From an uncultured Alphaproteobacteria bacterium (GTDB lineage Bacteria > Pseudomonadota > Alphaproteobacteria > Bin95), in assembly GCA_937891825.1 (NCBI GenBank), contig CALAHN010000081.1, forward strand, positions 6,700 to 70,699: a stretch of DNA of 64,000 bases, read 5' to 3'. The translations under genes and the position numbers were made by a program. This document shows positions 6,191 to 40,527 of the stretch, in pieces (position 1 is the first letter of the stretch; every line of letters begins with the position of its first letter). The notes below the pieces were generated by a model. That model did not search any database. It was not told the DNA's origin and worked only from the letters and a program-made list of their open reading frames with translations.

Positions 6191-6862
6191 CTAGCCGGTT
6201 TCGCTCAAGCGATAGCCGGCGCCGCGGACCGTGTGGAGCAATGGCTTGGCGAAGCCCTTGTCGATCTTGCTGCGCAGGCGGGAGATATGCACGTCGATGA
6301 CGTTGGTCTGCGGGTCGAAATTATACTCCCAGACATTTTCCAGCAGCATGGTCCGGGTCACCACCTGATCGGCGTTGCGGGCCAGATATTCCAGCAGCTT
6401 GAATTCCCGCGGCTGCAGGTCGATCCGGGCGCCGCCCCGTTGCACCCGGCGCGTCAGGAGGTCGATTTCAAGGTCGGCGACGCGCATGCCGGTCGGCGGT
6501 TCGTCGCCGCGCCGCCGGGTCAGGGCTTCGATCCGGGCGAGCAGTTCCGCAAAGGCATAGGGCTTGACCAGATAATCGTCGCCGCCGGCTTTCAGCCCCT
6601 TGACCCGGTCGTCGACCTGGCCGAGCGCCGAGAGGAACAGGATCGGCGTCGTATCGCCGGAAGCGCGCAACGTGCTGGCGGCGGCGAGGCCGTCCATGCC
6701 GGGCAGCATGCGGTCCAGCACGATGACGTCATAGCCGCTCGCAGCCATCATCACGCCGTCTTCGCCGGTGGCTGCATGGTCGGCGGTGTCGCCATGCTCG
6801 CCAAGCCCCTTGACCATGTAGGCGGCGGCTTCCCGATCGTCTTCGATAACAAGAATGCGCAT
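6191..6862 (-). CDS. OmpR-family response regulator (REC + winged helix)
   Basis: 223 aa; MRILVIEDD...VIVLDRMLPGMDG receiver, C-terminal DVHISRLRSKID wHTH; 7 nt upstream of kinase gene. Confidence 0.9.
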   Translation of the reverse strand: MRILVIEDDREAAAYMVKGLGEHGDTADHAATGEDGVMMAASGYDVIVLDRMLPGMDGLAAASTLRASGDTTPILFLSALGQVDDRVKGLKAGGDDYLVKPYAFAELLARIEALTRRRGDEPPTGMRVADLEIDLLTRRVQRGGARIDLQPREFKLLEYLARNADQVVTRTMLLENVWEYNFDPQTNVIDVHISRLRSKIDKGFAKPLLHTVRGAGYRLSETG

Positions 6863-6919
6863 GATGGCTTCCGTCCCCCCGGAACGGCGTCACGCGGCCG
6901 TCGGCCAGGATAACGCCTA

Positions 6920-6967
6920 GATCAAACCAACCTTAGGCGGAATCGCCTAAGGTTGGATAATTTGATC
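6920..6967. repeat. Palindromic intergenic repeat element, copy 1 (gatcaaa-ccaaccttaggcg-gaat-cgcctaaggttgg-ataa-tttgatc)
   Basis: Near-perfect 22-bp arms with 4-nt loop; homologous copies at 6998-7038 and 39630-39677. Confidence 0.7.
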
Positions 6968-6997
6968 GCTATCAATAAGATAGAACATGGACCGCGC

Positions 6998-7038
6998 TTA
7001 TCCAGCTTTCGGCGATTCCGCCAAAAGCTGGATTGATC
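6998..7038. repeat. Palindromic intergenic repeat element, copy 2 (inverted relative to copy 1; ttat-ccagctttcggcg-attc-cgccaaaagctgg-attgatc)
   Basis: Shares core GGCG-(GAAT/ATTC)-CGCC and flanking arms with copy 1, with compensating stem substitutions. Confidence 0.6.
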
Positions 7039-7136
7039 TGGCGGGCAGTATAGCGTTTGCCGCTTGGCATTACGTTAAAGACGGCGCTTGACCGATCCGC
7101 CCCCCGGCGCTGGCGCCAGGGGACAAATCCGTCGGA

Positions 7137-8636
7137 TCAGGATAGCGGCGCGGCGACGAAGCGGTCATTGCCGTTGATCCGGATCAGCAGCAGCACGGCG
7201 CTGCGGCCGGCTTCCTTCGCCATCCGGATCTTGTCGGCGGCGTCGCTCGGGTCGCTGACGGGATCGCCCGCGACCGCCAGCAGGACGGCGCCGGGGGCGA
7301 CGCCCTTTTCCCGAAGCGGACTATCGTCGGCAAGTGCGGCGATCAGCACGCCGGACGTATCGGCGCTGACGCCCGCGGCGCGCCTGGCGGCGGCGTCGAG
7401 CGGCGCGAGCGTCAGGCCAAGCGCGCCTGCGTTCGCGGCATCAGGCTGCGCCGTCGCCGCCAGCGTCGCTTCGTCAGGCAGGGTCCCCAGTTTCACCCGG
7501 AGCGTTTTCTCCTTGTTGTCGCGCCAGATCAGCAACTGCGCTGTGTCGCCCGGCGTGATGCCTGCGATGACGCGCGGCAGCTTCGGCATTTCGTCGATGC
7601 GCTCATCGTCGACCGCCAGGATGACGTCGCCGACTTTCAGCCCGGCCGCTTCGGCGGGGCCGCCGCTCGCGACGTGGGAGACGATTGCGCCTTCAGCCTT
7701 GTCCAGGCCGACGCCAGCCGCGATGTCGCTTGAGACGCCTTGGATCGAAACGCCGAGCCAGCCGCGCTGGACTGTTTGACCGGCCTTCAATTGCGCGATC
7801 ACGGACTTCGCCAGGTTGGACGGGATGGCGAAGCCGATGCCGACGCTGCCGCCGGTCGGCGAGAAGATCGCCGTGTTCACGCCGATGACTTTGCCTTCGA
7901 GGCTGAACGCCGGCCCGCCGGAATTGCCCTTGTTGATCGGCGCGTCGATCTGCAGGAAGTCGTCATAGGGTCCGGCGCCGATGGAGCGGCCGCGGGCCGA
8001 AATGATGCCGGTCGTGACCGTGTGGTCCAGGCCGAAGGGGTTGCCGACGGCGACGATCCAGTCGCCGACCTCGGCCTTGTCGCTATCGCCGAAGGCGACG
8101 TAAGGGAACGGCTTACGGCGCTCGACCTTGAGGAGCGCAAGGTCGCTGCGGCTATCGGCGCCGACAAGCGTGGCGTTGAGCTTCTCGCCATCCTGCAGGG
8201 TGACGATGATCTTTTCGGCGCCCGCCACCACGTGGTTATTGGTGACGACATGGCCTTCGGCGTCGATGATGAACCCGGACCCGAGCCCGGTACGGGGGCG
8301 TTGGGGGCCAGGCGCGCCTTGCGGCATCCGGTCGCCGAAGAAGCGTTCGAAGAATTCCCGCATGCCGGGCGGCAGGTCTTCGACCGACGGCGCTTCGGCG
8401 GCGCCGGCTTTGGCGGTGACTTCGATGTGAACGACGGCAGGAGCGACCGCTTTCACAACTGGCGAGAAGCTCGCCGGTCCGCCGGAGGGAGTGATCGCCT
8501 GCGCATGGGCTTGCCCGAATGTCGGCAGGCCATGACCCAAGGGCGCCAATGCGGCGCCGGCGGCCAGGCCGGCAGCAAGTACGGAAACCAGCCCGATACG
8601 CTTGACGAATGGACGCTGAGGACGGTCGTTGCCCAT
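7137..8636 (-). CDS. degP: DegP/HtrA (Do) family periplasmic serine endoprotease with two PDZ domains
   Basis: 499 aa; signal peptide; catalytic His/Asp/Ser motifs (VTNNHVV, DLALLKV, GNSGGPAF). Confidence 0.9.
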   Translation of the reverse strand: MGNDRPQRPFVKRIGLVSVLAAGLAAGAALAPLGHGLPTFGQAHAQAITPSGGPASFSPVVKAVAPAVVHIEVTAKAGAAEAPSVEDLPPGMREFFERFFGDRMPQGAPGPQRPRTGLGSGFIIDAEGHVVTNNHVVAGAEKIIVTLQDGEKLNATLVGADSRSDLALLKVERRKPFPYVAFGDSDKAEVGDWIVAVGNPFGLDHTVTTGIISARGRSIGAGPYDDFLQIDAPINKGNSGGPAFSLEGKVIGVNTAIFSPTGGSVGIGFAIPSNLAKSVIAQLKAGQTVQRGWLGVSIQGVSSDIAAGVGLDKAEGAIVSHVASGGPAEAAGLKVGDVILAVDDERIDEMPKLPRVIAGITPGDTAQLLIWRDNKEKTLRVKLGTLPDEATLAATAQPDAANAGALGLTLAPLDAAARRAAGVSADTSGVLIAALADDSPLREKGVAPGAVLLAVAGDPVSDPSDAADKIRMAKEAGRSAVLLLIRINGNDRFVAAPLS

Positions 8637-8818
8637 GGTGTCGCCTTTCTATCGGAGTGCAGATTGCGTGGTCGGTGAGGTCTATATAGGGCGCATCTGC
8701 TTACGCCATGCTGTCCGGCGCATGAAATCTTCGTAATCCGGCGAAAGCATGGCGATGTTTTCCTGGGCCGACTTCCGCTATGGTCCCGCGCCTTCGCCCG
8801 GAATGCCTGGAACGACCG

Positions 8819-10216
8819 ATGCAGTATATCTCGACCCGTGGCGACGCGCCGACGCTCGACTTCGAAGGCGTGTTGCTGGCCGGCCTCGCGAATGACGGCG
8901 GCCTTTATGTGCCTGCCGCATGGCCGCACCTCTCGGCCAGCGCCTTGCGCGCCTTGCGGGGCCAAACCTATGCGGAGACGGCGTTCGCCGTCACCTGGCC
9001 CTTTGTCGAAGGCTGTATCGATGCGGCCGCCTACAAGCGCATCCTCGAGGAAACCTACGCGACCTTCGAGCATCCGGCCGTCACGCCCTTGGTCCAGCTC
9101 GGCCCCGACCTCTGGTCGCTTGAGCTGTTTCATGGGCCGACCCTGGCCTTCAAGGATGTCGCGCTGCAATTGCTCGGCCGTTTGTTCGACCACGTGCTGG
9201 CGAAGCGCGGCGAGACGATCGCCATCGTCGGCGCGACCTCGGGCGATACCGGCTCGGCCGCAATCGAGGCCTGCCGGGACCGGAAGAACATCAGGATCTG
9301 CATCCTGCATCCCGACGGCCGCACGTCTGAGGCGCAGCGCCGGCAGATGACGACGGTCGACGCGCCGAACGTCATGAATATCGCCATCGAAGGCGATTTC
9401 GACGCCTGCCAGGACCTTGTAAAGGCGATGTTCGCGGATCGGGGCTTCCGGGAAGAGGTCAACCTGTCCGCCGTGAACTCGATCAACTGGGCCCGGGTCA
9501 TGGCGCAGATCGTTTATTACGTTTATGCCGCGGTGCGCCTGGGCGCGCCCGACCGGCCGGTCGCGTTCGCGGTGCCGACCGGCAATTTCGGCAATGTCTT
9601 CGCCGCCTATGCCGCGACCCGGATGGGCGTGCCGATCCAGCGGCTGGTGATCGGCTCCAACGCCAACGACATCCTGACCCGTTTCTTCGAGGCCGCCGAC
9701 ATGTCGATGCGGCCGGTCGCGCCAACGCTTTCCCCCTCCATGGATATTCAGGTATCGTCCAACTTCGAGCGGCTGCTGTTCGATCTCTATGATCGGGACG
9801 GCCATGCGGTCGCCCGCGCCATGCGGGAATTTCGGGAGACCGGCCGCCTGAGCGTCGGCGCCAACCGCCACGGGGTCGCGACCCAGCTCTTCCGCGCGGC
9901 CCGGTTCGACGACGCGGCGACGCTGGAGGGCATCCGCGCGCTCCAGGCGCGGTCGGGCTATCTGGCCGATCCCCACACCGCCGTCGGCTTGCTGGCGGCG
10001 GAAGCGCTGCCTGAGGCCGACTGCGCCATGATCGTCGCCGCGACCGCCCATCCCGCCAAGTTCGCCGCCGCCATCCGGCAGGCGACGGGCGCCGATCCCA
10101 TCATGCCGGACCGCCTGAAGGCGGTTTTTGAGAAAAAGGAAACCTATTCCGTCATGCCCAACGATCTGAAAACCGTGCAAGCCGCCGTCCGCAAAATGGC
10201 CGGAGCGACAGCATGA
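8819..10216 (+). CDS. thrC: Threonine synthase
   Basis: ORF 8780..10216; internal ATG 8819 gives MQYISTRGDAPTLDFEGVLLAGLANDGGLYVP, the canonical ThrC N-terminus; PLP-fold residues. Confidence 0.9.
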   Translation: MQYISTRGDAPTLDFEGVLLAGLANDGGLYVPAAWPHLSASALRALRGQTYAETAFAVTWPFVEGCIDAAAYKRILEETYATFEHPAVTPLVQLGPDLWSLELFHGPTLAFKDVALQLLGRLFDHVLAKRGETIAIVGATSGDTGSAAIEACRDRKNIRICILHPDGRTSEAQRRQMTTVDAPNVMNIAIEGDFDACQDLVKAMFADRGFREEVNLSAVNSINWARVMAQIVYYVYAAVRLGAPDRPVAFAVPTGNFGNVFAAYAATRMGVPIQRLVIGSNANDILTRFFEAADMSMRPVAPTLSPSMDIQVSSNFERLLFDLYDRDGHAVARAMREFRETGRLSVGANRHGVATQLFRAARFDDAATLEGIRALQARSGYLADPHTAVGLLAAEALPEADCAMIVAATAHPAKFAAAIRQATGADPIMPDRLKAVFEKKETYSVMPNDLKTVQAAVRKMAGATA

Positions 10217-11472
10217 CCGTCGATGTGACGCGGCTCGCCAATGGCCTGACCGTCGCGACCGACCGGATTGACGGCGTCGAGACCGCGGCGCTCGGCGTCT
10301 GGGTCGGCACAGGCGCCCGTGCTGAAACGGCGGCCAACAACGGCGTCGCGCACCTGCTGGAGCATATGGCGTTCAAGGGCACGGCCAAGCGGAGCGCCGC
10401 CCAGATCGCTTCGGAGATCGAGGATGTCGGCGGGCATTTGAACGCCTACACCAGCCGCGAGGTGACCGCCTACTACGCCCGCGTCCTGAAGGAGGATTCC
10501 GCGCTCGCGCTCGATGTGCTGGCGGACATCCTCTTGAACTCCACCTTCGACGCGGCCGAGCTCGACCGGGAGCGGGAGGTGATCCTGCAGGAAATCGGCC
10601 AGGCCAACGACACGCCGGAAGACGTCGCCCATGACGCCTTTCATGCGGCGGCTTATCCCGATCAGCCGGTCGGCCGGTCGATCCTGGGGGAGCCGGACAT
10701 CATTCGCGCCATCGGCCGGGACGCGGTGATCGACTATATCTCCGGGCGCTATCTGCCGGGCGCCATGGTCGTCTCCGCCGCCGGCGCGGTCGACCACGAT
10801 ACGTTCGTCGCGATGGCGACGCGGCTGTTCGGCGGCATGGCCCCCGGCCCGGCGCCGCTGCTCGAACCGGCGCTCTACAAGGGCGGTGAGAAGCGGATCG
10901 TCAAGGCCTCCGAACAAGCGCACATCTATTTTGGATTGCCGGGCCCTCAGTATGGGGCGGACGATTATTATGCCGCCCATGTCTTCTGCGCGCTCTATGG
11001 CGGCGGCATGTCTTCGCGCCTGTTTCAGGAGGTCCGGGAGAAGCGCGGGCTCTGCTATTCGATCTACTCGTATTTGTCGGCGCTCGCTGATAGCGGCATG
11101 TTCGGCATCTATGCGGGCACGGACGGGGCGCAGGCCGGCCAGGCGCTGGAGGTCGCGATCGACGAACTGAAGTCGGTCGCGATGTCCGCCGGCGTCGGGG
11201 AGACCAATCGCGCCAAGGCGCAGCTTCGGGCCAGCTTGCTGATGTCGCGCGAATCCACATCCATGCGCGCCGAGCAACTGGCGCAGCAGCTCCTGATCCA
11301 CGGCCGGCCGCTTTCGACCGAGGAAGTCCGCGCGAAGGTCGACGCCGTCGATCCCGCCGCGGTCAGCGCCGTCGCGGCGGCGGCGCTCGCCGGCGCGCCG
11401 ACCCTGGCCCTGGTCGGACCGGTGGAGGGCGCGCCGTCGCTTGCGGCGCTGACGGCGCGCCTGGCTGCGTAA
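10213..11472 (+). CDS. M16 (insulinase/pitrilysin) family zinc peptidase
   Basis: 419 aa; inverted zinc motif HLLEHMAFKGT; start overlaps thrC stop (conserved thrC–M16 synteny in Alphaproteobacteria). Confidence 0.85.
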   Translation: MTVDVTRLANGLTVATDRIDGVETAALGVWVGTGARAETAANNGVAHLLEHMAFKGTAKRSAAQIASEIEDVGGHLNAYTSREVTAYYARVLKEDSALALDVLADILLNSTFDAAELDREREVILQEIGQANDTPEDVAHDAFHAAAYPDQPVGRSILGEPDIIRAIGRDAVIDYISGRYLPGAMVVSAAGAVDHDTFVAMATRLFGGMAPGPAPLLEPALYKGGEKRIVKASEQAHIYFGLPGPQYGADDYYAAHVFCALYGGGMSSRLFQEVREKRGLCYSIYSYLSALADSGMFGIYAGTDGAQAGQALEVAIDELKSVAMSAGVGETNRAKAQLRASLLMSRESTSMRAEQLAQQLLIHGRPLSTEEVRAKVDAVDPAAVSAVAAAALAGAPTLALVGPVEGAPSLAALTARLAA

Positions 11473-11484
11473 CGGCTTCGTCCC

Positions 11485-12894
11485 ATGGACTTGCTGCTGG
11501 CGTTGCTGCCGCTTGGGGCGGCGTTCGCGCTGATCCTGGCCGGCCGGGCGAGCATCGCCAATGCCGGCCTGATCGGCGCGGCGATCGCTGTCGGCCTGGC
11601 CGGGCTGGATGGCGGCGTCATCGTCGCGGCCGGCGCCGTCGCGCGCGGTCTCTGGATCGCGTGGCTGGCGATTTCGATCATCGTGACAGGCCTCTTCTTC
11701 CAGAAGGCGGCGCTGGCCGCGGCGCCGGACGTGTTCCGCCTCCCGGGCGGCTCCGCGTCGGATGCGCGGGCGCAGGCGTTCACGGCCGTGTTCCTGCTCG
11801 GCGTGTTCGTCGAAAGCGCCAGCGGCTTCGGCCTTGGCGCGGTCGCGGCGGCGGCTGTCCTTCAGGCCGGCGGCCAGGGCACGGTCCGGATGGCGGCGCT
11901 GGCGCTGCTCTCCCTGGCGCTGGTGCCCTGGGGCGCGCTCGCCATCGGCACGAGCATCGCGGCCGGGCTGACAGGATTTCCCGCCGCCGCGATCGGCGTC
12001 GGGAGCGCCTTTCTCTCCGTGCCCGTGCTGGCGACGGCGCTGGTCCTGTTCTGGCGCTGGGCGCCGGGTCCGGTCTCCCTCAAGGCCATGGCGGCCGAGA
12101 CGCTGTGGCTCGGGGCCTTGCTCGCCTTGCTCTGGGCGGCCAATCGCTTCGGCGCGGTCGATGTGGCCGGCGTGATCGCCGCGGGCGCGCTTTTCGCCCT
12201 GCGTTGGGCGATCGACCGGGCGCGGGACCGTCCGGCGCTGACGGCCGGGCCGTTTGCCCTCTTCGCGGTTTTCATCGTGGCGCTGCGCCTTGTCCCAGGC
12301 GTGACGCCCTGGCTTGAGGCGCTTTGGACGCTCCAGCCCTGGCCGACCCTGCCGCGGTTCGCGCCGGTCGCCCATGCGTCGGTCTGGCTGCTGGTCCTGG
12401 GCGCGGGCTTTGCGCTGAGCCAGGGGCTTCGCCCTCGCCGCCTCGCCGCGGCCGGGCAGGCGGCGCTCAAGGCCGCGCGCGTGCCGGTCCTGGTGACGGC
12501 GGGGTATATCGTGCTGGGCGAGGCGATGGCGGCGCGCGGCGCGCCCGCGGTGCTGGCGGATGCGGTCGCGGGCCTTGCCGGGGCCGGGGCGGCCTATGGG
12601 ACGCCGGTCTTCGCGGCGCTGGCGGGCTGGCTCACAGGCTCGAACGCGGCGGCGCACGGCATGCTCGTCGAACTGCAGGCGGCGCTGGGGAGCGCAGCCG
12701 GCGTCGATCCGCTCCGGGCGGTATCGGCTCAGAACGTGGTCGCGAGCGCCTACACCATGCTCTCGCCGATGCGCGTCGCGCTCGTCGCGGCGGCGCTGGG
12801 GCTGGCGGGGCAGGAGACCCGGATCGTCCGCCTCCTCCTGCCCTTCGCCCTTGCCGTCCTCGCCGTCGGCTGGGGGGCGATCGCCCTGAATTAA
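11485..12894 (+). CDS. LctP-family (L-lactate permease-like) membrane transporter
   Basis: 469 aa Ala/Leu-rich polytopic protein; FVESASGFGLGAVAAAAVL...ALVPWGALAIG matches the LldP FLEGAAGFGAPVAI...NTAPVAFGA region; shorter than typical LctP. Confidence 0.55.
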   Translation: MDLLLALLPLGAAFALILAGRASIANAGLIGAAIAVGLAGLDGGVIVAAGAVARGLWIAWLAISIIVTGLFFQKAALAAAPDVFRLPGGSASDARAQAFTAVFLLGVFVESASGFGLGAVAAAAVLQAGGQGTVRMAALALLSLALVPWGALAIGTSIAAGLTGFPAAAIGVGSAFLSVPVLATALVLFWRWAPGPVSLKAMAAETLWLGALLALLWAANRFGAVDVAGVIAAGALFALRWAIDRARDRPALTAGPFALFAVFIVALRLVPGVTPWLEALWTLQPWPTLPRFAPVAHASVWLLVLGAGFALSQGLRPRRLAAAGQAALKAARVPVLVTAGYIVLGEAMAARGAPAVLADAVAGLAGAGAAYGTPVFAALAGWLTGSNAAAHGMLVELQAALGSAAGVDPLRAVSAQNVVASAYTMLSPMRVALVAAALGLAGQETRIVRLLLPFALAVLAVGWGAIALN

Positions 12895-12927
12895 TCAGCC
12901 CATTGGCGCGGGCGCCAATGGGCTGAT
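12894..12927. terminator. Perfect 16-bp inverted repeat hairpin between convergent genes (candidate bidirectional terminator)
   Basis: atcagcccattggcgc-gg-gcgccaatgggctgat; directly abuts the LctP-like stop codon. Confidence 0.45.
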
Positions 12928-12979
12928 CGATCGCTAGCAGTCGCCTCAAAGCGCCGCGCTGTCGCCGGCGTGGGTCCCT

Positions 12980-37817: not shown

Positions 37818-38717
37818 ATGAATCAACGACGGCCGCGTGGCCGGAACAACAATAGCAATAATAATAACAATAATAATAACCGAGGGCGCAACCAAAGCCA
37901 ACGGAACCAATCGTTTGACAGCAACGGGCCCGAAGGGCGCGTGCGCGGTTCGGCGACACAGGTGCTTGAGCGCTACCTGGCGCAAGCCCGTGACGCCCAG
38001 GCGGCGGGCGACGGCGTTCTGGCCGAAAACTTCTTCCAGCATGCCGAGCATTACTATCGCGTGTTGAGCGCTGCGAACGCCCAGTTCGAGCAGCAGCAGC
38101 GGGACCGTCAGGGGCCGTATGACGAGCGGGATCGCCGCCCGCCCCGCAACGACGGCGGCGACGACAGCGACGATAATCGCGACGACAATCGCGACGATGG
38201 CTGGCAGGCCGACGACGCGCGCTCCGACGGCCGGAATGACGGCCGCAACGAAGGGCGCGGCGACAATCGCAGCGACAATCGCAATGACGGCCGTTTCGAC
38301 AATCGCGGCGACAGCCGGACCGAAGGCCGCAACGAGCCTCGCAATGACGGGCGTCAGGAAAGCCGGGGCGAAGGCCGCGGCGACAATCGCAACGACATGC
38401 GGGGCGATAATCGCGGCGAGACCCTGGATCACCAACGGGACGCGCAGCGCGACGACGGCGACCGCGACGATGGCGATCGCGCCGCCGGCCAGCAGATGGC
38501 CCACGACAGCGGCGCCGCGCCGGACGAAGCCCCGCCGCGCCCACGGGCGCGCCGCAAGGCCCCGGCGAAGTCCGAAGCTGCGGCGAGCGACGCCGCGCCC
38601 TCCCGCGAGGCTGGCTCCGGCGACGCCGGCGCCGATATCGATGTCGCGTTCCTGAAAGACGCCCCGAAGCCACGCCGCCGTCGCCGGCCGGTCGTCGAAA
38701 CCGAACCGGCTGACTGA
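37818..38717 (+). CDS. DUF4167 domain protein with poly-Asn tract and R/D/N-rich tandem low-complexity repeats
   Basis: 299 aa; MNQRRPRGRNNNSNNNNNNNNRGRNQ...VLERYLAQARDAQAAGDGVLAENFFQHAEHYYRV conserved N-domain, then ~25 iterations of (G/D)RNDGR(N/G)E-type units. Confidence 0.8.
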   Translation: MNQRRPRGRNNNSNNNNNNNNRGRNQSQRNQSFDSNGPEGRVRGSATQVLERYLAQARDAQAAGDGVLAENFFQHAEHYYRVLSAANAQFEQQQRDRQGPYDERDRRPPRNDGGDDSDDNRDDNRDDGWQADDARSDGRNDGRNEGRGDNRSDNRNDGRFDNRGDSRTEGRNEPRNDGRQESRGEGRGDNRNDMRGDNRGETLDHQRDAQRDDGDRDDGDRAAGQQMAHDSGAAPDEAPPRPRARRKAPAKSEAAASDAAPSREAGSGDAGADIDVAFLKDAPKPRRRRRPVVETEPAD

Positions 38718-38718
38718 G

Positions 38719-39555
38719 ATGCCGAAGCGCCTGACGCGGCGACAGCATCAAGACTATCTGACGAACGGGTTTGTCGCCCCGATCCAGGCCTTTACGCCGG
38801 CCGAGGCCGCAAGCTTTCGCCAGCGCTTCGAGGCCTATGAGGCCAGACATGGCGGCTGGCACGAACTCTCCAAGGGTCAGAAACTTTACCTGATCCAGAC
38901 CTGGGCCGCAGAGCTTGCCTCAGCGCCCGCGGTGCTGGATGCGGTCGAGGATGTTCTTGGCCCGGACCTGATGGTCTGGGGCCTCAGCCTGTTCGTGAAG
39001 GATGCCGGCGCGCCCGGCTTCGTCACCTGGCATCAGGATTCGACATATTGGGGCTTGAGCGAGCCCAAGGTCGCGACGGCATGGATCGCGCTTTCGCCGG
39101 CGACCAGGGCGGCCGGCTGCATGAAAATGCTGCCAGGCTCCCATCGCTTCGATCAGCAGCCCCACAAGGACACGCTCGCCGCCGATAATCTTCTGACGCG
39201 CGGCCAGGAAATTGCGATGGCCGTCGACGAAGCGGACGCGGTCTACTGTCCGCTGGATGCGGGCGCCCTCTCCTTGCACCATGTCCGCACGGTCCATGCT
39301 TCGGACCCCAATCGCGGCGACGACCGGCGGATCGGCGTCGCCATCCGCTACATCGCGCCGGATGTGCGACAGGTGAACGGCGAAAAGGATTCGGCCTGGC
39401 TGGTCCGCGGCGAGGACCGGCACGGCAATTTCATCCATGAGGTCCCGCCCAGGGCCGATATGGACCCAGCCGCCCTCGCAGAGCGCGACCGGATCATGCA
39501 ATTACGCCAGGGCGTCCTCTTCAAAGGCGTCGCAGGCGCCCCCGCGCGGTCCTGA
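38719..39555 (+). CDS. Phytanoyl-CoA dioxygenase (PhyH) family Fe(II)/2-oxoglutarate-dependent oxygenase
   Basis: 278 aa; starts 1 nt after DUF4167 stop; VTWHQDSTYW (HxD), later His ligand region. Confidence 0.8.
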   Translation: MPKRLTRRQHQDYLTNGFVAPIQAFTPAEAASFRQRFEAYEARHGGWHELSKGQKLYLIQTWAAELASAPAVLDAVEDVLGPDLMVWGLSLFVKDAGAPGFVTWHQDSTYWGLSEPKVATAWIALSPATRAAGCMKMLPGSHRFDQQPHKDTLAADNLLTRGQEIAMAVDEADAVYCPLDAGALSLHHVRTVHASDPNRGDDRRIGVAIRYIAPDVRQVNGEKDSAWLVRGEDRHGNFIHEVPPRADMDPAALAERDRIMQLRQGVLFKGVAGAPARS

Positions 39556-39629
39556 CCGCCTGCGTCGCGGCGGCTAGAGCATGACGCGCTCAAATGAGCG
39601 CGTGGTCCATCCTCTACCTTATTAATATC

Positions 39630-39677
39630 GATCAAATTATCCAGTCTTAGGCGTTTCCGCCTAAGACTGGTTTGATC
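39630..39677. repeat. Palindromic intergenic repeat element, copy 3 (gatcaaa-ttat-ccagtcttaggcg-tttc-cgcctaagactgg-tttgatc)
   Basis: 44/48 identical to reverse complement of copy 1 (6920-6967); the two stem differences are compensatory (aacc/ggtt vs agtc/gact). Confidence 0.7.
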
Positions 39678-39687
39678 TAGCCGTGCT

Positions 39688-40527
39688 TCAGCTTGCGAGC
39701 GCTTGGCCGGGCGGCGCTTCGCGGGGTTGAAAGAGGCCGCGGGTTGTCGGGTCGGCGACGAAATCGATTGCCGCGCCTGCGGCCGTCTCCTTGTCGCCAA
39801 GGTAAAGATAGCCGTCGGGATTGAGCTGCCGCGCGACAGAATCCAGCACCGTCTTGCGGCGGTCCTGGTCGAAATATGACAGGACGTTGCGGCAGAAGAT
39901 GACGTCGAAGCAGCCGATGTGGGATGGGTCGTCCAGCAGATTGAACTGCTCGAAGCGCACGGTCTTGCGCAGGTCCGACTTGATCCGCCAACGATCGCCG
40001 GCTTGCTTGAAGTGGGCGACCAGATGCCGGATCGGCAGGCCGCGCTGGACCTCGAACTGGCTGTATTCCCCAGCCCTGGCGTGGGCGAGCGCGCTTTCGG
40101 AGATGTCGGTCGCGAGCAACTGAACGCGCCATCCCGAGAGAGCCGCCTTGCGATCGGCGAGCAACATGGCGAGGGAATAGGCTTCCTGGCCGGTCGAGGC
40201 GGCGGCGGACCAGATCCGCAACGTCCGCGTCTCGGCGCGGGCGGCGAGCAGGGCCGGCAGCGCCGTCTCGCTGAAGTGGCGGAAGGGCGCGCCATTCCGG
40301 AAGAAGCAGGTTTCGTTCGTCACGATCGCTTCGACGACAGCGCGCACGGCTTCTGGCGCCCGGGTCGTCATGATGTGCTGGATGAGGTGGTTGATGTCGT
40401 CATGGCCGAACTGCTGGGCCACGGGCGCGAGGCGGGCGTCGGACGCATAGCCGCTATCCGCCTCCAGAACCTGCCCGCATTCCCGGGCGATCAGCGCGGT
40501 CAGAAATTTCTGGTGGGTTGGGGTCAT
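39688..40527 (-). CDS. cheR: Chemotaxis protein methyltransferase CheR
   Basis: 279 aa; N-terminal all-alpha domain + SAM MTase (IWSAAASTGQEAYSLAML, FCRNVLSYFD). Confidence 0.9.
   Translation of the reverse strand: MTPTHQKFLTALIARECGQVLEADSGYASDARLAPVAQQFGHDDINHLIQHIMTTRAPEAVRAVVEAIVTNETCFFRNGAPFRHFSETALPALLAARAETRTLRIWSAAASTGQEAYSLAMLLADRKAALSGWRVQLLATDISESALAHARAGEYSQFEVQRGLPIRHLVAHFKQAGDRWRIKSDLRKTVRFEQFNLLDDPSHIGCFDVIFCRNVLSYFDQDRRKTVLDSVARQLNPDGYLYLGDKETAAGAAIDFVADPTTRGLFQPREAPPGQALAS

Follow-up and report, generated by a model that had tools for sequence, protein, structure and literature searches.

The locus raises the question of what a palindrome with a 20-bp stem, lying in the gap between two converging genes, represents when a second stretch of the same DNA carries its reverse complement. 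The palindrome occupies positions 39630-39677 of the 64-kb stretch analysed here (hereafter the window) and reads gatcaaa-ttat-ccagtcttaggcg-tttc-cgcctaagactgg-tttgatc, exactly as quoted in an earlier, sequence-only reading of this DNA. That reading had also placed it correctly, 75 bp past the PhyH stop (which ends at 39555) and 10 bp past the cheR stop (which starts at 39688), with the PhyH gene (38719-39555, plus strand) and cheR (39688-40527, minus strand) facing it from either side. In reverse complement the palindrome matches 6920-6967 at 43 of 48 positions on our recount, one fewer than the 44 first counted. All four stem differences are compensatory, as claimed (AC to GT on one arm, GT to AC on the other), and the change of the loop from GAAT to GAAA is the fifth and last difference. 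Similarity between the two loci extends over 85 nt at 86% identity (6913-6997 against 39600-39684). Together with a profile match of E=1.7e-31 over 108 nt and fold z-scores of -6.6 for RNA on either strand and -9.2 for DNA, this places both the similarity of the copies and their folding far above chance. The 48-nt palindrome is only the first hairpin (hairpin 1) of a 103-nt element, and we consider it likely that this unit of about 103 nt is a non-coding, non-autonomous mobile element of the MITE type.

The element has the layout YTA·GATCAAA-hairpin 1-AT-rich linker (CAATAAGnTAGAGCA)-hairpin 2-TGCTC·TAR, where dots mark its boundaries, and the aligned family sequence is YTA · GATCAAACCAACCTTAGGCGGAATCGCCTAAGGTTGG ATAA TTTGATC GCTATCAATAAGA TAGAGCATGGACCGCGCGTCCACCTGGACGCGCCATGCTC TA · R. 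Hairpin 1 has a bulged 20-bp stem and a GAAW loop; hairpin 2 is unrelated to it in sequence. The left end is YTA·GATCAAA in the window family and YTA·GAGCA in the wider family described below. Terminal inverted repeats are short at 7-8 nt, (C)TAGAGCA...TGCTCTA(G); the 8-nt form CTAGAGCA...TGCTCTAG is kept across genera and is short for a MITE, and the window-type repeat, CTAGATCA, matches at seven of eight positions. In the linker, the AATAAG columns are invariant in both alignments (A1 and A2) and are also kept across the wider family. The sequence-only reading had missed the 103-nt unit, the second, unrelated hairpin, the TA/YTAR junctions, the donation of stop codons and the spread of the family across the Alphaproteobacteria.

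Three copies, A, B and C, lie in the window (see the table). Copy C, which contains the palindrome in question, matches the family profile at 39572-39679 (model positions 1-108) and reads TA-GATCAAA...hairpin 1...linker...hairpin 2...CATGCTC-TA on the minus strand. Copy A matches model positions 1-80 (E=6.3e-25) and ends inside hairpin 2 at 6997, where copy B adjoins it; the pair forms a 42-nt inverted repeat with a 37-nt spacer and 83% complementarity. The genes at this second locus, degP (7137-8636) and a response regulator (6191-6862), are both on the minus strand.

Table: Positions of the element copies in the window and of the parts of copy C.
Feature	Position	Strand	Description
Copy C, full length (TA + 101-nt core + TA)	39575..39679	-	Boundaries from the family alignment
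Hairpin 1 of copy C	39630..39677	-	Outer stem GATCAAA/TTTGATC, ATAA bulge, 13-bp inner stem 39641-39670, GAAA loop
AT-rich linker of copy C	39617..39629	-	AATAAG just before the TAGAG that opens hairpin 2
Hairpin 2 of copy C, including terminal TA	39575..39616	-	TAGAGGATGGACCACGCGCTCATTTGAGCGCGTCATGCTCTA on the minus strand; folds, with covariation in helices 3 and 4
Copy A, truncated	6918..6997	+	TA + hairpin 1 (6920-6967) + linker + 5' arm of hairpin 2
Copy B, solo inverted hairpin 1	6998..7040	-	CA flank, not TA; model positions 2-43, E=2.7e-7

Both hairpins are maintained by covariation. In the window family 12 of 37 pairs are doubly changed and 96.9% of cells remain paired, a result equalled by none of 500 shuffles, while controls with the structure slid along the alignment fall to 22-39% paired; the argument from covariation to a hairpin, made originally from two copies, thus stands on the whole family. 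Of 46 copies, 42 are compensated at the two stem positions that vary. Across nine organisms whose copies have window-type ends, double changes affect 20 of 37 pairs; in the inner stem of hairpin 1 they affect 11 of 13. Mismatches on the top strand comprise 22 G-U and 16 A-C, showing no preference for one RNA strand.

The label of a terminator-type module given earlier fits hairpin 1 in shape: a scan for terminator-like features flagged hairpin 1 followed by TTTGATCTAG on the plus strand at copy C (the direction of PhyH), on the minus strand at copy A (the direction of degP) and in the consensus copy. The flag applies to one reading direction only: neither hairpin 1 in the opposite direction nor hairpin 2 was flagged by this simple scan. 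The hairpins with their U-rich tails may act as transcription terminators or 3'-end stabilisers, and the predicted terminator role is clearest for hairpin 1 when read from the hairpin 2 side, as from PhyH and degP. No promoter-like site was found in the element by scanning; TTGGAT-N17-TAAGAT in the linker was considered as a promoter and rejected, as it fell below the scan threshold. At the gathering threshold Rfam gave no match in the window, and in 12 related loci it gave unrelated families only, none of them on the elements. A permissive Rfam scan of the site (E up to 10) returned chance-level matches only.

The census was carried out with a strict 20-base hairpin 1 pattern, run on metagenome contigs and on GTDB species representatives. 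Among the metagenome contigs it matched 42 loci, of which 39 came from a single assembly, ERZ888423; the narrow coverage of their contigs (10-12.7x) indicates that these 39 copies belong to one genome. No GTDB species representative matched, so the exact window-type hairpin is absent there, and the window element had no match among plasmid sequences. With an nhmmer profile of full copies, the retrieved loci (about 375 kb) and the window together yielded 61 non-overlapping copies, with 58 copies in 370 kb of sampled DNA from a second metagenomic genome. About 18 of the 61 were not the seeds by which the loci had been retrieved, which suggests a density of roughly one copy per 20 kb. A dispersed family, rather than a local regulatory site, had been predicted from the window, and with 42 pattern loci and 61 profile copies, 39 of the former in one genome bin, the motif does occur far beyond the two loci from which it was first described.

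The boundaries are sharp. Counting the right-hand TA, 26 of 39 full copies measure exactly 103 nt; TA flanks the left end in 35 of the 39 and forms the last two bases in 29, base -3 is C or T in 35, and base +1 is G or A in 27. Individual copies can be very similar between genomes: copy C (window 39573-39679) is 99% identical to locus L047 984-1090, and the region of copy A (window 6916-6997) is 99% identical to L041 6665-6746 in ERZ888423. Horizontal transfer cannot be read from the 97-99% identity of copies between the window and ERZ888423, because the sampled ERZ888423 loci hold no orthologues of window genes, only paralogues of at most 47% amino-acid identity, by which the relatedness of the two genomes could be gauged.

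Copies combine in mosaic fashion. Pairs arranged in tandem, nested or head to head were seen at L034 730-889, L026 4792-4929, L041 6637-6865 and L025 9241-10017, solo hairpin 1 units at L032, L045 and L052, and solo units of linker plus hairpin 2 at L012 10143-10200 and L021 5207-5267. The repeat also breaks assemblies. The retrieved sequences L011, L021 and L035 end inside the element (...TTTGATCGC), for L011 and L035 at the contig end, and contigs L063-L069 begin inside it, in the gap between degP and the response regulator.

Where the copies lie relative to genes was scored for the 29 copies that have a called gene no more than 300 nt away on each side. Convergent gaps hold 20 of them, gaps between tandem genes eight and a divergent gap one, against a background of 49 convergent pairs among 224 adjacent gene pairs in the same loci; the 3' ends of convergent genes had been singled out for comparison in the sequence-only reading. 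Copies are mostly intergenic, with some in divergent gaps and inside genes, and occur in both orientations. They persist mainly at the 3' ends of genes, above all in convergent gaps.

The element opens and closes with an inward-reading TAG, and for this reason it can replace the stop codon of a gene at its landing site. We took as coding-like any ORF of at least 60 codons with GC3 of at least 0.75. By this definition the terminal TAG at the left end is the stop of a coding-like ORF in 11 of 26 cases (0 and 0 in the other two frames) and that at the right end in 13 of 26 (2 and 0 in the other frames), so that about 45% of element ends provide an in-frame TAG stop for the flanking gene. Copies of the wider family in GTDB genomes donate stops in the same manner: left ends gave 18 such cases (3 and 3 in the other frames) and right ends 13 (5 and 0). 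Copy C itself donates no stop, as PhyH ends 19 nt and cheR 8 nt outside it.

Close strains differ by the presence or absence of the element. Copy C is present in all assemblies with an identical PhyH protein. In the strain represented by L057-L059 the flanks are 98.9% identical over 3.1 kb and the PhyH-cheR gap is 54 nt long, without copy C. This gap does not qualify as a clean empty site, since its junction lacks TA and further indels lie close by, and a target duplication is therefore unreadable from it. Beyond the missing copy, comparison of window 39562 with L057 2093-2136 shows a further 23-nt indel and a 4-nt change, the 3.1 kb of flanks being free of gaps, and the intergenic allele of this near strain looks remodelled or replaced. 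In the more distant GCA_002007545.1 (PhyH 79% identical) the order of PhyH and cheR is kept around a 51-nt gap that holds a different hairpin and no element.

A clean pair of filled and empty sites was found in Rhizobium. The filled site on pSK02 (L183 454-555) reads gtcc-TG-(102-nt core)-TA-acac, and its copy sits in a divergent promoter gap; the empty sites in sp. SU303 (95% identical) and BT04 (L184, L185) read gtgc-TA-acac, a single TA within CTAA, which conforms to YTAR. The TG...TA of the filled site against the single TA of the empty one is consistent with TA duplication, and equally with insertion of a TA-ended element beside a TA. On S. meliloti pSymB (CP130047.1; L181, about 401-499) a copy lies in frame within the 3' end of a uracil-xanthine permease gene, whose ORF runs through the entire element to its original stop; S. 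medicae (L182) lacks the insertion. The two sequences are too diverged for this pair to serve as junction evidence.

To find relatives of the element, GTDB was searched with a pattern that combines linker sequence with the foot of hairpin 2, AATAAGNTAGAGCA-N24-36-TGCTCTA. Among the matches listed there were more than 107 loci, against about 14 that we estimate would be expected by chance, and the listed matches are nearly all alphaproteobacterial and all of one architecture. They come from Pseudochelatococcus, Methylobacterium, Microvirga, Xanthobacter, Rhizobium, Hoeflea and Martelella, and further from Rhodobacteraceae, Terasakiella, Pelagibius, Caenispirillum, Limobrevibacterium and many Rhodospirillales MAGs. 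Outside the pattern they agree further: hairpin 2 is perfect, hairpin 1 keeps its size and has a loop of the GGAAWC type, YTAGAGCA forms the left end some 64 nt upstream, and the right end is TGCTCTAR. This makes three occurrences of the 8-mer YTAGAGCA, one at the left end, one in the centre and one inverted at the right end. Ends of the window type, TAGATCAAAC...ATAATTTGATC, accompany wholly different stems in eight loci (L074, L083, L155, L116, L117, L118, L080 and L110). Searched against plasmids, a Rhizobiales-type copy matched 1685 places on 509 records, mainly of Rhizobium and Sinorhizobium; the matches are intergenic or at gene ends, and the copies on S. meliloti pSymB and Rhizobium plasmids measure about 100-107 nt.

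In direct alignment the window copy is about 55-56% identical to Rhizobiales-type copies (z of about 3) and 65% identical to the copy at Pelagibius L110, which none of 500 shuffles equalled. The link to the Rhizobiales copies is drawn from the common architecture, the invariant motifs and intermediates such as Pelagibius L110. Judged by these features, the window family would form the Rhodospirillales-type branch, with TAGATCA ends, of an old superfamily whose copies occur also in Sinorhizobium, Rhizobium, Methylobacterium, Xanthobacter, Rhodobacteraceae and others, and apparently in Brucella. The element is, then, a distinct branch of a known, little-studied kind of alphaproteobacterial repeat.

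Among named repeats, those of Brucella come closest. PMC3163539, PMC2266754 and PMC10800456 describe Bru-RS1 as a 103-bp palindromic intergenic repeat and Bru-RS2 as one of 105-106 bp, consider both to be putative hot spots for IS711, an insertion sequence that duplicates TA at YTAR, and trace the Bru-RS elements to Halling & Bricker 1994. In a Brucella locus found through BP26 (L177, CP065400.1) we located a two-hairpin element of about 105 nt just downstream of bp26 (10828-10934) and, at 8686-8900, another copy that is disrupted. Their architecture is the same, CTAG-hairpin 1-AACAAAGGATTAGAGC-hairpin 2-GCTCTGA. Xanthobacteraceae and S. meliloti copies match the element downstream of bp26 at 68-70% identity, a score that none of 500 shuffles reached; the window copy matches the Brucella copy in 61 of 118 aligned columns (about 52%), with 8 of 500 shuffles as good. 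A profile built without Brucella sequence recovered only the hairpin 1 half of the disrupted copy (E=2.6e-5) and not the element downstream of bp26. The disrupted copy is overlapped by Rfam BASRCI153 (RF02604, 8756-8969, 249 bits), and by this overlap at least one copy of the element is part of a reported transcript. From their size, their location and the cited link of the IS711 downstream of bp26 to Bru-RS, the Brucella elements are probably Bru-RS1/Bru-RS2. The window family resembles Bru-RS in being 103-106 bp long, palindromic, intergenic and multi-copy and in containing YTAR sites, and differs from the Brucella elements in its TAGATCA left end, its ATAA-bulged hairpin 1 and wholly different stems.

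The RIMEs of Rhizobiaceae are intergenic elements of about 108 bp with two large palindromes. Compared by description, this account of size, two palindromes, intergenic position and host fits the superfamily copies on Sinorhizobium and Rhizobium replicons. RIME1 and RIME2 appear in PMC2573895 as Rhizobium-specific intergenic mosaic elements, credited to Osteras et al. 1995. In one Sinorhizobium genome (L180) the 139-nt chvI-exoS gap, the region of the first-reported RIME, has two palindromes and no superfamily member, with neither a TAGAGCA motif nor a profile match. At least RIME1 may therefore be a different family.

How the copies spread was considered against three other explanations. On the MITE-type reading, a transposase acting in trans would insert copies at the TA within YTAR, a target that contains the stop codons TAA and TAG on either strand; an element landing on the end of a gene would thereby swap in its own TAG as the stop codon. 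From the terminal inverted repeats, the mobilising enzyme would most likely be of the DDE type and duplicate TA. The attribution to DDE, TA-duplicating enzymes leans on the IS630 and IS5 families. No repeated segment longer than 400 bp that could be a parent insertion sequence was found among 170 sampled loci, and no transposase with matching ends in the sampled loci or under the listed plasmid matches. One competitor is a REP/REPIN family whose spread, through single-stranded hairpins, would be driven by a RAYT (Y1 tyrosine transposase, IS200/IS605 type). The label given at the outset was "REP or MITE-like", and its second half fits better than its first. The many extragenic copies and their preference for convergent gaps are common to both; perfect, compensated hairpins free of RNA strand bias would suit a DNA hairpin, copies A and B form a REPIN-like inverted doublet, and solo hairpin 1 copies exist (L032, L045, L052). 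REP, BIME and REPIN elements are alike also in their mosaic pairs, 3'-end sites and possible terminator or stabiliser roles. Against this, the amplified unit is neither a 20-40-nt REP nor two copies of one REP but a fixed 103-nt combination of two unrelated hairpins, and its junctions are TA in YTAR. The two REP superfamilies are defined by a GTAG or CGTC tag at the foot of the hairpin (PMC3733652). The element conserves neither tag: AAGATAGAGC is as frequent as AAGGTAGAGC in the copies, hairpin 1 opens with GATC or GAGC, and any of the four bases can precede TAGAGC. Across genera it is the pair of inverted termini that stays conserved while the stems vary, the signature of terminal inverted repeats, and we regard a REP/REPIN origin as quite unlikely. 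Br-REP1 and Br-REP2 of Bradyrhizobium, multi-palindrome repeats of about 200 copies that are transcribed and lie in the overlapping 3' UTRs of convergent genes (PMC5082802), differ from the element in sequence (CCGGAATCTCGAGATTCCGG core) and in having three stem-loops.

Selection by the host could also account for much of the pattern, if the module were a bidirectional terminator, an mRNA 3'-end stabiliser or a set of small RNA genes whose mobility is incidental or extinct. Its location at 3' ends and in convergent gaps, the passing of the terminator scan by hairpin 1 plus TTTGATCTAG in the PhyH and degP directions, the stem kept by covariation in nine organisms despite turnover of sequence, the GAAA/GAAW loops and the overlap of the BASRCI153 small RNA with one Brucella copy all speak for such a role. 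A plain terminator, however, would have no need of non-stem positions, linker included, that are 85-99% identical, and the occurrence of both orientations, of divergent-gap and intragenic copies and of presence/absence differences between close strains is not what it predicts; nor does the element show a promoter-like site, an Rfam match or a G-U strand bias. Such a function is in any case compatible with a mobile element and need not displace it, and as a full explanation we hold it to be unlikely. Dyad symmetry, and the position of copies A and B upstream of a response-regulator gene, would also suit a site bound by a local regulator, such as an operator belonging to the neighbouring response regulator or to the chemotaxis genes. 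The census refutes this reading, with dozens of copies beside unrelated genes in another genome and hundreds in other genera; a compensated, perfect 13-bp stem is unlike the evolution of operator half-sites, and the orthologous gap in relatives lacks the element, which leaves this explanation scarcely credible. The MITE-type reading can be taken further, to a single mobile superfamily of Bru-RS-type elements across the Alphaproteobacteria that carries three copies of YTAGAGCA, targets TAR stops (YTAR) and supplies an inward TAG from both termini, in effect a "stop codon plus terminator" cassette that spreads itself and serves convergent gene pairs. This extension is possible, and we put it forward tentatively, as something we would not yet expect to hold in full.

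Several well-known families offer a parallel to a MITE-type element of this size. Correia/nemis in Neisseria, ERIC/IRU in enterobacteria and RUP in Streptococcus pneumoniae are TA-duplicating MITEs of about 100-150 nt, non-coding and present in many copies. They have TA at their junctions and terminal inverted repeats, form long hairpins when transcribed, and lie at gene ends, sometimes overlapping the ends of ORFs. The element has no sequence similarity to any of them; its terminal repeats are only 7-8 nt long, and its body folds into two separate hairpins, where theirs form a single long one.

For annotation, the 103-nt units merit masking or labelling as repeats, as they break assemblies, mimic small-RNA and terminator predictions and set the stop codon at about 45% of their ends. 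One architecture has persisted from Rhodospirillales through to Brucella and rhizobia despite compensatory turnover of the stems, which points to a long-standing association of host and mobile element. Culturable carriers with many copies are available in Sinorhizobium, Rhizobium, Methylobacterium and Brucella. Breadth across the Alphaproteobacteria and the donation of stop codons are the most interesting by-products of the analysis, and the unifying description of the superfamily and the stop-codon donation may be unpublished.

Two other features of the window were recorded. On the plus strand, positions 37818-38717 hold an ORF with a high content of Arg, Asn, Asp and Gly; it contains a repeat of 12-nt period at 38134-38421, and its orthologue in L054 carries PF13763 (DUF4167). 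At 12869-12952 there is a 41-nt inverted repeat with a 2-nt spacer and 71% complementarity, unrelated to the two-hairpin family.
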